Below, in pieces: positions 39,001 to 42,000 of a stretch of DNA of 56,224 nt (within the stretch, counting starts at the first letter, position 1; each line of letters starts with the position of its first letter). The position numbers were made by a program. This DNA comes from Stx2-converting phage Stx2a_WGPS9, in the sequence record AP012535. One strand, given 5' to 3'.

Positions 39001-42000
39001 TGGAAAAGAACTCCTTATGATCGACCGATTTATACCACATCCACTGGTGCTACAGGAAATAAAATATATTCCTGTGAGCATTATTCCGGTGGTGCAACAT
39101 GGGATATTCGAAAGCCGTATATAGATAAGGTCCTGGTTATTAATACATCAGTATATGATTAGTTGAAGCGAGTCTTTAATATTCATTTAAAATGTCTAAA
39201 AAGATGTATTATTAAAAAGTTTAGCGTGTTATCTGAATACAGGATATCTTAAATGAAGAGTATAGCAACACTGGTTGTGTGTGCAATCTCCGGGATTGCC
39301 TGTGTAAATTTATCTGCACATGCAGCAGAAGGAGAGCATACAATTTCTCTGGGGTATGCGCACTTTCAGTTTCCGGGACTGAAGGATTTTGTAAAGGATG
39401 CGACTGCTCATAACAGGGAGACTTTCAGTCATTTCGTCAACAGAAACTACTTTTCTTCATTGGGCGAATATACAGATGGTCGGGTCAGTGGATATGAAGG
39501 CAAGGATAAAAATCCACAGGGCATTAATATCAGGTATCGCTACGAGATAACGGATGATTTTGGCGTTATCACCTCTTTTACATGGACGCGTTCTCTCACT
39601 AACTCACAGACATTTATTGATGTGCAGTCAGCCGATCATACCAGGAAGATTAAGAATCCGGCAGCTTCTGCCAGAACGGATATCAGGGCGAATTACTGGA
39701 GTCTGTTAGCGGGGCCTTCATGGCGGGTTAATCAGTACATGAGTTTATATGCGATGGCAGGGATGGGCGTTGCTAAAGTTAGCGCTGACCTGAAAATTAA
39801 GGACAATATTAACAGTAGTGGCGGATTTTCTGAAAGCAACAGCACGAAAAAAACCTCCCTTGCGTGGGCTGCAGGTGCACAGTTTAACCTGAATGAGAGT
39901 GTTACACTGGATGTGGCTTACGAAGGTTCCGGCTCTGGCGACTGGCGCACGAGTGGCGTTACTGCTGGCATTGGCCTGAAATTCTGACCTGTATCCGGTA
40001 ACCGTTTACTACCCGCTGTGATGGCGGGTTTTTTATTGCCCGTACAGGGCAAAAACCGTAAATTATGCGTGGGTGCCTTTCGGCTGATGGCTGGAGGGTG
40101 AACCTGAAGGCCTGATGTGGAAAGGCCCCGAGTCAACTTAACGTTAACCCGAGGCCCTAACACTTCGTACCTTAAGCAAGTAGAAGGTTAGCGCCTCTCT
40201 GTAAAAGGAGTCAAGCGCTATGTCGCAAAAATCGCTTATCACCGTCACAATTTGCATGACGGTTATCTTCACCATCTGGATGTTGCACGGTTCACTGTGT
40301 GAGTTCCGGCTGAATTTGTGGGGAGCGGAGTTTGCGGCGTTCTTACAGTGTAAGCAGTAGGAAAACCGCGACGGGGACGAGAGTCCCCGTCAACTGGTTG
40401 CTGAGGTTCAGCCGATATGGCACCCGTTTCAGGTGAGAGAATGAACGATAAAATTCTCTGGTATATGCAGCGTGTTGTGAGAAATTCCCGCAACCCTGAA
40501 TTTATGAATGAAGTTAAAGACGCCTGCCTTAAAAAGCAGGCGTTTTGTTTTGAGGCACCTGATGGCTTTTTGGTGCTGCGTTCTGTGCTCAGTGCTGATG
40601 GTATCCCTTATGTTCTGGTGTTGCTGGGCGTGTGTACGGGGAGTAACAGCGTTGAGCGTTACCTGCCGGAGGTGAAGACATTAACCCATCTGGCTGGCGG
40701 ACGCTGGGCTGAGTTCCATACGGCAAGGCGGGGATTTATCCGGCTGGGAAAACGACTGGGCTTTGAGCGAATGCCGGATGATGAGGATGGCTTCATGGTG
40801 TTCAGGATAGCGGTCTGACTGCTACAGTTTTCATCATTGTGTTTAAACCAACATTGTAATTCACATTCTGACCCTGCTCCGGCAGGGTTTTTTGTTATCC
40901 AGGGGGCCATTATGGGTGGAAGTAAAGGCGGTGGTGATACCAAAGTAAAACCAACAGCAGCGCAAATAGCACAGGAAGAAGTGGCCTGGAAAGGGTGGCA
41001 GGATTACAAAAATATCCTCCGCCCGGCTGAAGATAACTTCATGGAAAAGGTCGATGACCTGAACAGTGAGCAGCAGTACGACAATATTGCTGGCACCACA
41101 AATCTGGGGTATCAGAAACAGTTTGGCGAAGCACGGAAGGAGCTTGCGGGTAATCTTGCTCAGTCCGGCGTTGACCCATCCAGTGGTCGTTTTAATGCGG
41201 TAATGAATGCGAACCAGAGTGACCAGGTAACCGGGCAGATTGACACAACCACACGGGGGCAGGTATCGCAGGCAGATAAGTATGTTGCCGGGCTACAGGA
41301 TGTTGCTGCTCTCGGTTCTGGTCAGAAGGCGGATGCGTTACAGAGTTTTAACTCTCTGGCAGACAGCAGTCTGGCAAAAGCTAAATCGGATGCACAGGCG
41401 GCGTTTACGAAACAGCAGGGGCGAGCCTCTCTTGTTGGCGCTGGTCTGGGTGCGGCAGGTGCATATGCGATGCATAAGGCTGGCGGTAGCGGAGGAAGTG
41501 GCGGTGCTAAAACACCTGGCACCGGCGCTAATGCCATTCAGCATCAGGCTCAGAACTGGAGACTGTAATTATGGAGTATGGCAAATACGAAACTCTCGCA
41601 AGGGCTGGTTATTCAGGAGCAGACCGCCCACAGGGTGACTGGCAGACGTCAGCAGCGCTGACACGCCAACAATACGACGACTGGCGAACCAGATATTTGC
41701 CCCGCGTGGCAAGGCTGGCTGACCTTGGGGAGAACAACAGTCTGATGAATGCACAGCTTGCACGGGTGGGAGGCCTTGCCACTTCCAGTCTCCGTACAGC
41801 GCAGATGGCGCAGGATAACCAGATGGCGAGATACGGGGTAAACCGCCCGGATAATCCCGACAGTAATACGCTGGGGTTACGTAATGCCCTGGCAATTGCT
41901 GGCGCGAAAAATGGTATCCGTGAAGCCGAACAGGATCGCCAGATGAATATTCTGACGGGGGCTTCTGCACCGGCAAGACAGAAACTGAGTGTTGGCGGCC

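Follow-up and report, generated by a model that had tools for sequence, protein, structure and literature searches.

The genome of the Stx2-converting phage Stx2a_WGPS9 (sequence record AP012535), whose full 56,224 nucleotides are referred to here as the window, carries a small open reading frame (ORF) of the Hok toxin family between its lom gene and the gene L0129, and the sequences around this ORF point to a type I toxin-antitoxin module of the hok/sok type. The ORF occupies positions 40220..40360 on the + strand, encodes the 46-amino-acid peptide MSQKSLITVTICMTVIFTIWMLHGSLCEFRLNLWGAEFAAFLQCKQ, and lies 232 nt downstream of a lom-type gene of the Ail/Lom family (39253-39987; Pfam Ail_Lom, E=1.5e-32). 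Its Shine-Dalgarno sequence, AAGGAG (40205..40210, + strand), is located 9 nt upstream of the ATG. An earlier interpretation made from the sequence alone (the sequence-only reading) had pointed to a 46-codon ORF with a good Shine-Dalgarno sequence downstream of lom, and both the ORF and its placement stand.

Comparison with family models assigns the peptide to Pfam PF01848 (HOK_GEF) with 33.2 bits (E=4e-08) against a gathering cutoff of 22, the match spanning residues 8-44 of the peptide and profile positions 6-42 of 42, and a single transmembrane helix is predicted at about residues 6-22. In an alignment with Hok-R1, HokW, HokA, HokB, HokC and HokE, residues C12, T14, L26, E28 and E37 are invariant and C27 is nearly so, with HokB as the sole exception; the single-transmembrane, Hok-family character that had been proposed for the product is thereby supported. 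The corresponding residues also match the positions described as conserved among Hok proteins (C16, T18, L30, C31, E32 and E41) in the text of a recent preprint (Escalera-Maurer et al., bioRxiv 10.1101/2025.08.07.668861). The closest named relative is HokA (45% identity, BLASTP E = 4e-12), with which the peptide shares the M(S/P)QK start, a tryptophan in the transmembrane segment, the C-terminus AAFL(A/Q)CK and the replacement of tyrosine by cysteine near the C-terminus, although the preprint places the two in different 60% clusters (93 for HokA and 72 for this peptide). Orthology to HokA was considered and rejected, the score on the NCBIfam equivalog model NF007290 being 38.4 bits against a cutoff of 89, and the Hok-subfamily model NF007279 gives 22.7 bits, below its cutoff of 73. 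On sequence grounds the ORF thus belongs to the Hok family, but its equivalog score excludes an assignment to HokA.

Over 601 bases around the locus, the sequence shows 100% identity with phage 933W, VT2-Sakai/Sp5 and many other Stx2a phages, and equally with >200 chromosomes of Shiga toxin-producing Escherichia coli; the window is a 933W/Sp5-type Stx2 phage. The description of the gene as unannotated holds for the original GenBank phage records (933W AF125520, Stx2 phage I), which are blank at this ORF and in 933W pass from lom to L0129, but not for RefSeq, where the Prokaryotic Genome Annotation Pipeline (PGAP) calls exactly this ORF as a 'Hok/Gef family protein' (WP_000078907.1, locus tag EDL933_RS06980). 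The identical peptide is also catalogued in the preprint of Escalera-Maurer et al. as 72_1589, a member of the 'high-abundance' 60% cluster 72, and was cloned there as LRP157 for a toxicity assay under arabinose induction. As the preprint's text and the legend to its Figure S4 name only 19_179, 60_1482 and 69_1540 as non-toxic among the 45 constructs tested, 72_1589 can be counted among those reported as toxic. The same source describes hok genes as enriched in prophages, with two copies in 3.5% of hok-bearing phages, and for O157:H7 a total of 13 hok genes was given by Faridani et al. 2006. That this hok gene exists, belongs to the family and encodes a toxic peptide is therefore already known, and novelty in these respects is low; what is new here is the RNA anatomy of Hok cluster 72 and the presence of a second hok gene during published deletion studies of the phage's hokW-sokW system.

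The gene is part of a larger unit of about 390 bp, which by comparison of its copies extends over 40036-40425. In BLAST searches the segment 40051-40425 behaves as a sharp-edged unit that occurs in 1750/5426 complete E. coli genomes, with <=9 copies per genome; IMG/VR contributes >120 viral contigs. Besides the position after lom in Stx phages, copies are found in ST131 behind ogr, where a P2-like prophage ends, in the urease island of O157, and in a lambdoid prophage, where the module separates J from the tail-fibre gene; homology to the copies in other contexts stops at 40425. A scan of one genome per species for a motif in the 5′ untranslated region (UTR) found the module only in Escherichia albertii and in two probable contaminant contigs, and so yielded no cross-genus diversity. 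E. coli-type hok modules in assemblies labelled as the Gram-positive Vagococcus sp. WN89Y (a 226-kb contig) and Xanthomonas pisi DSM 18956 (an 857-bp contig) are more likely to reflect contamination or mislabelling than transfer. Tandem modules, about 450-720 bp apart, are present on the single viral contigs L028 (4353-5099) and L103 (5545-6364), where the two copies differ in the 5′ tails at the antisense-target region.

Conservation was assessed on 70 unique copies of the module compiled from the genome and viral-contig searches. The toxin ORF is unbroken in all 70, at 46-48 codons, and the median ratio of nonsynonymous to synonymous substitution (dN/dS) among diverged pairs of copies is 0.26; the peptide is, by this measure, under purifying selection. 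In the window all large ORFs from stx2A (15916) to 52006 lie on the + strand, and the module is inside the late operon and co-oriented with it. A published table of the RNA-seq response of EDL933 to ciprofloxacin lists the neighbouring late genes as increased 11-32-fold and lom RNA as unchanged. This pattern fits an autonomous unit and proves nothing. The available text of Mondal 2016, on late-gene mutagenesis of Sp5, makes no mention of hok or lom.

The predicted sense RNA and its alternative folds

An intrinsic terminator of lom (40011-40029, followed by a T-run) is succeeded immediately by a candidate hok promoter (40036..40064, + strand) consisting of the -35 element TTGCCC (40036-40041), a 17-nt spacer and the -10 element TAAATT (40059-40064). 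Five copies taken from four unrelated genomic contexts all retain the TTGC of the -35 and the pattern T-A-n-A-n-T of the -10. At 8/12 the candidate is under the threshold of a generic sigma-70 scan (9-of-12 rule), which returned no promoter in 39950-40560; both this promoter and the antisense promoter described below fall short of that rule and are proposed on homology and conservation. The predicted full-length hok mRNA, of about 355 nt (40071..40425, + strand), would begin with GGGTGCC, which corresponds to position 1 of the Rfam hok-leader model. That model, RF01794, matches 40071-40233 (+) over model positions 1-157 at 35.6 bits (E=1.5e-5), a score below the gathering cutoff (GA) of 59 and visible only in E-value mode, and by this measure the locus is a divergent relative. 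Although RF01794 is named 'sok antitoxin', it matches the sense and not the antisense strand, covering the whole 5′ leader of the hok mRNA up to the hok AUG both here and at 53171-53345 (-), and its strand call should not be taken as the orientation of the Sok gene.

The minimum free energy fold of a 359-nt RNA starting at 40072 pairs the 5′ end with the 3′ end (z = -6.26 against shuffles). Its elements can be named after the logic of R1 hok established by Gerdes and co-workers, which is built on tac, fbi and a target hairpin. The tac-like 5′ element (40072..40087, + strand) pairs with the fbi-like sequence at 40408-40424 through two helices, 98% and 81% paired across the copies. The fbi-like sequence, TCAGCCGATATGGCACCC (40408-40425), forms together with an anti-target segment (40394-40407) the 3′ regulatory tail (40394..40425, + strand); the limits of 40040-40400 assigned to the feature by the sequence-only reading contained the ORF but cut off this tail. 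The anti-target segment sequesters the antisense-target region (40169..40183, + strand) in a helix that is 89% paired and contains 4 pairs changed on both sides (e.g. GC:47/AU:14 and AU:34/GC:23).

The initiation region is likewise enclosed in the full-length fold. The GGAG of the Shine-Dalgarno sequence (40207-40210) pairs with CUCU (40197-40200) within a hairpin closed by 40190-40194 / 40215-40219, of which the closing helix (helix 7) is 100% paired and the inner helix (helix 8) weaker, at 66%. A downstream box, UUUGCGGCGU (40331..40340, + strand), which encodes the residues EFAAF, pairs with the start-codon region AUGUCGCAAA (40220-40229) in a helix (helix 9) that is 95% paired and has one pair occurring as CG, UG, AU and UA. 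Behind the coding sequence (CDS) follows a GC-rich hairpin, GACGGGGACGAGAGTCCCCGTC (40370..40391, + strand; helix 10), with a 9-bp stem and a GAGA loop, which is 99.8% paired and shows compensatory changes in 4/9 pairs. As a whole the full-length fold is 91.1% paired across the copies, compared with 33-49% when the partners are slid by 1-3 columns, and the 13 pairs changed on both sides are found mainly in three helices, those of the target with the 3′ tail, the start codon with the downstream box, and the post-CDS hairpin.

Removal of the 3′ tail leads to a second predicted fold. Here GCCUUUC of the 5′ end (40075-40081) pairs with GAAAGGC (40120-40126), the alternative partner of the tac-like element, in a helix that is 98% paired and shows a compensatory change from C-G to U-A in 9 sequences. 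The antisense-target region is then presented by a hairpin (40151-40170 / 40180-40197) as the loop CUUAAGCAA (40171-40179), which contains a YUNR motif, and the lower part of this hairpin is conserved among the copies. The processed fold is 90.4% paired, compared with 37-56% when slid.

The hairpin that the sequence-only reading had placed after the ORF is thus present, but the terminator role implied for it is not supported: no U-tract follows it on the + strand. On the model of R1 hok, it is better explained as a stop point of 3′ exonucleolytic processing, and it probably defines the 3′ end of the translatable mRNA. The nearest terminator-like hairpin lies at 40522-40552 (GCCTGCCTTAAAAAGCAGGC followed by GTTTTGTTTTG), scores on the - strand as well, and is inside the CDS of L0129 (40417-40818). 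It may end lom/hok transcripts expressed in the lysogen, or the start of L0129 may be mis-called. The fbi element overlaps the annotated L0129 start (ATG 40417), and an alternative in-frame start, ATG 40441, preceded by GGTGAGAG, is found just outside the hok module.

The predicted antisense RNA, the leader ORF and the missing mok

A promoter for an antisense RNA is predicted on the - strand at 40185..40214, with the -35 element TTGACT (40214 to 40209), an 18-nt spacer and the -10 element TAACCT (40190 to 40185). The -10 TAACCT is invariant in 70/70 copies and accompanied by a -35 of the form TTGnnn at a distance of 17-18 nt; at the homologous position sokW has the identical TAACCT and an R1-type locus TATCCT. 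In sokW this same element was changed from TAGGTTA to CCGGCTC with primers YO-421/422 in a promoter-less mutant, and antitoxin activity was lost (Takada et al. 2021, PMC8621323). The predicted Sok-like RNA of about 60 nt (40177 to ~40117, - strand), the ends of which follow from the promoter and the hairpin, would consist of a single-stranded 5′ tail of about 19 nt, GCUUAAGGUACGAAGUGUUA, a 16-bp hairpin and a terminal UUUCC, and is complementary at its very 5′ terminus to the predicted target loop. In 44/44 unique variants folding of the hairpin region favours the antisense over the sense strand (mean -26.3 vs -16.5 kcal/mol), with about 3 G-U pairs per variant, although the hairpin sequence itself differs between lineages. 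This asymmetry provides good indirect evidence for the predicted Sok-like antisense RNA.

Ahead of hok lies a short leader ORF (40106..40191, + strand), which has an SD-like GAAGG (40106-40110), ATG 40115 or GTG 40117 as possible starts and, from the GTG, 24 codons up to TAG 40189-40191. Its start, the only one available upstream, lies beyond the antisense hairpin, on the far side from hok; its stop codon is 28 nt short of the hok ATG and sits at the base of the hairpin in which the ribosome-binding site (RBS) is sequestered. Expression of hok in the R1 system depends on translation of mok, a reading frame that, where it occurs, has the same orientation as hok. In the window copy all three frames are closed between ~40139 and 40220, no mok ORF overlaps the hok start, and no start codon occurs at the position of the R1 and hokW mok AUG. 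The leader start reads through into hok in 20/70 copies, giving mok-like ORFs of 60-79 codons, and elsewhere stops 15-98 nt upstream; because the read-through state varies within single Hok lineages, a long mok is not under selection here. That the short leader ORF substitutes for mok by coupling its translation to that of hok is speculative; antisense control may instead work solely via RNase III decay or refolding.

Relation to hokW-sokW and plasmid R1

Stx2 phages of this type carry a characterized hok/sok locus, hokW-sokW of the Sakai prophage Sp5, which encodes the 51-amino-acid HokW, was cloned with a primer starting ATGAAGCAGCAAAAGGCGATG, and has been shown experimentally with respect to toxicity, antitoxin activity, dependence on RNase III and Hfq, and a role in phage release (Takada et al. 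2021, PMC8621323). An identification of the present locus with hokW-sokW was rejected, as both the primer for HokW and its 51-aa peptide (MKQQKAM...) locate to 53156-53176 (-); hokW-sokW occupies ~52957-53346 (-) in the window, with the hokW ATG at 53176, and had gone without mention in the sequence-only reading. By position and sequence, the locus at 40220 is the second, divergent hok locus of the phage, and it receives no mention in Takada et al. 2021. The upstream ATG of hokW at 53233, at the mok position, is in frame with hokW, so that 'mokW' would be a 70-amino-acid, N-terminally extended HokW and not an out-of-frame ORF.

The two loci of the phage belong to the same family and share the identical -10 TAACCT of the antisense promoter at a homologous position as well as the layout of the hok promoter, which in hokW reads TAGAAT, 6 nt, GGGTGC. 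They differ in most other respects. HokW-sokW is located on the other strand at a distance of 13 kb, past the late operon and convergent with it, whereas the 46-amino-acid locus is inside the operon and co-oriented; HokW is longer and only 33% identical to the 46-amino-acid peptide; and the hokW leader reaches 113.5 bits on RF01794, far above the score obtained here. The predicted recognition tails of the two antisense RNAs are not cross-complementary, with tail duplexes of about -40 kcal/mol for cognate and about -18 for non-cognate pairs, and the Sok-like RNA and sokW are accordingly predicted to be orthogonal, each favouring its own target by about 20 kcal/mol. Unlike hokW-sokW, the second locus has peptide toxicity as its sole experimental support, as far as the preprint's text and tables describe it.

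The locus also resembles hok/sok of plasmid R1, the paradigm of type I toxin-antitoxin systems. Both loci have a small single-transmembrane toxin with the C...T...LCE...E residues, an mRNA of ~350-400 nt with tac-fbi pairing, an alternative fold without the 3′ tail and a GC hairpin after the stop codon, and, as predicted for the phage locus, an antisense RNA of ~60 nt composed of a single-stranded 5′ tail followed by a long hairpin, whose promoter has a -10 overlapping the conserved sequence (A/T)AGG(T/A)TAGC ~30 nt upstream of the hok RBS. In contrast to R1, the phage peptide is 46 instead of 52 aa long and 28% identical, the locus has neither a conserved overlapping mok nor a start codon where R1 has that of mok, fbi is not followed by a terminator hairpin, and the carriers of the module are prophages and genomic islands, not a plasmid. 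For cluster 72, which holds 72_1621 in addition to the identical peptide, mok, Sok and mRNA structure were deliberately excluded from the preprint, and the Stx-phage context is not discussed there. A related observation concerns the R1-type locus of the IncFII plasmid pMTY1886 (L131), where the 34-codon 'Hok family toxin' called by PGAP (408-509) is truncated relative to the full 52-amino-acid Hok detected by tblastn at 351-506 and where the ATG at the mok position is again in frame with hok.

Elsewhere in the window, Rfam matches above the gathering score comprise the ALIL frameshift pseudoknot of an IS3-family element near the window start (1019-1135, -), the lambda cIII thermoregulator (2993-3051, -), three tRNAs upstream of stx2A (15574-15822, +), STnc100 directly behind stx2B, with AsxR coming next on the opposite strand (17231-17490), and sRNA-Xcc1 near the window end (55697-55785, -). 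These matches are as expected for a 933W-type Stx2 prophage.

Proposed mechanism, alternatives and significance

The Pfam match, the RNA architecture with its compensatory changes, the invariant sokW-like promoter and the toxicity of the peptide as given in the preprint together support the hok/sok-type organization that had been read from the sequence. It is likely, judging from sequence comparison and RNA folding, that the locus is a complete and probably functional hok/sok-type type I toxin-antitoxin module distinct from hokW-sokW, and that it forms an autonomous 'moron' between lom and L0129. By analogy with R1, a weak constitutive promoter would give rise to the ~355-nt hok mRNA, in which the 3′-terminal ~30 nt pair with the 5′ end (tac-fbi) and with the antisense target while the RBS and AUG are paired as well. 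Because target, RBS and AUG are all paired in this covariation-supported fold, the full-length RNA would, as in R1, be neither translated nor bound by the antisense RNA. Slow 3′ trimming to the GC hairpin (40370-40391) would then allow the 5′ end to re-pair with GAAAGGC and expose the target loop, a rearrangement for which the fold is supported by covariation and the processing is assumed. An unstable Sok-like RNA of ~60 nt from the TTGACT/TAACCT promoter would pair via its 5′ tail with this loop and may block the leader start (40115/40117), trigger RNase III decay, or both. Once antisense synthesis stops, Hok would be made, insert in the inner membrane and depolarise or kill the cell. Prophage retention, help in lysis as for hokW, and exclusion of other phages are candidate roles in the phage.

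Several points weigh against this interpretation. Both RNAs and the translation of Hok at the native locus are predictions here, and the evidence for toxicity comes from the text and tables of a preprint. The scores on NF007279, NF007290 and RF01794 are all below the respective cutoffs. The copies were gathered by a 25-nt motif of the 5′ UTR, so that the conservation of that motif is circular; the structures evaluated were derived from the window sequence itself; and most copies come from closely related E. coli, which causes shuffle controls to overstate significance. An intrinsic terminator after fbi is lacking within the module, leaving the 3′ end of the mRNA undefined. The hok gene EDL933_RS06980 does not appear in the ciprofloxacin-response table of EDL933, an absence that is uninformative rather than negative. 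Finally, no mok overlaps the hok start, and as mok is needed in R1, the native locus could be translationally silent.

This last point underlies the strongest alternative, namely that hok is decaying or translationally silent here, a remnant from which, for want of an overlapping mok, Hok is never made natively, as at most chromosomal hok loci of K-12. The closed frames ahead of the hok start, the restriction of mok-like read-through to a minority of copies and its variation within lineages would suit such a remnant, as would the missing entry in the induced-gene table and the inactivity of the K-12 hok/sok loci described by Faridani 2006. Decay is difficult to reconcile, however, with a Hok ORF that is intact in every unique copy and under purifying selection, with compensatory changes that maintain both alternative mRNA folds, and with the strong RBS AAGGAG and the toxicity on expression reported in the preprint. 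Moreover, the invariance of the antisense promoter and the retention of the antisense hairpin, with its G-U pairs, in all variants speak against decay, since an antitoxin is needed only where a toxin can be made. A remnant is therefore considered unlikely.

It is very improbable that the actual gene is instead a 74-amino-acid ORF on the opposite strand (40269..40493, -), with the 46-codon ORF as an incidental feature. The 74-amino-acid ORF exists, as the sequence-only reading had stated, and is longer than hok, but it has no Pfam match at E<=1, is not called by RefSeq, and faces on the + strand an ORF with a family match and purifying selection. Its start codon, a TTG at 40493, is outside the module, and the ORF hence cannot exist in the P2-like, OI-43 and lambdoid copies; as its start codon lies in DNA not common to the other contexts, the ORF is most likely spurious. 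The suggestion that it arose as a by-product of a mok/sok-type overlap fails in turn, because mok shares the strand of hok and the region of the Sok-like RNA (~40117-40177) belongs to the 5′ UTR ahead of hok, away from the 3′ half of the gene. The notion of a chance ORF with a fortuitous Hok-like motif has only its small size in its favour and, against a Pfam score above the gathering cutoff, an always intact ORF in 1750 E. coli genomes and several contexts, and RNA covariation, is already refuted and deserves next to no credence.

An extension of the hok/sok-type interpretation, tentative and on balance rather unlikely, takes up the position of the module in the late operon. Late Q-antiterminated read-through would switch Hok on at prophage induction through an excess of sense RNA, head-on interference with the Sok-like promoter and bypass of the tac/fbi lock; with leader coupling independent of mok, the two orthogonal Hok 'timers' of the phage would serve to tune lysis or release, or to exclude competing phages.

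For the biology of these phages, the finding means that Stx2 phages of the 933W/Sp5 type have two distinct hok/sok modules, of which hokW-sokW alone has been studied, and its importance is modest. When hokW-sokW was deleted, growth arrest came ~40 min later and phage yield fell 2-fold (PMC8621323). The second locus bears on these phenotypes because the deletion strains still carried a second Hok. For the family, a Hok cluster carried by about one in three complete E. coli genomes appears to combine an R1-type switch and a Sok promoter with the lack of a conserved mok, and would thus offer a natural variant for asking whether mok is obligatory.

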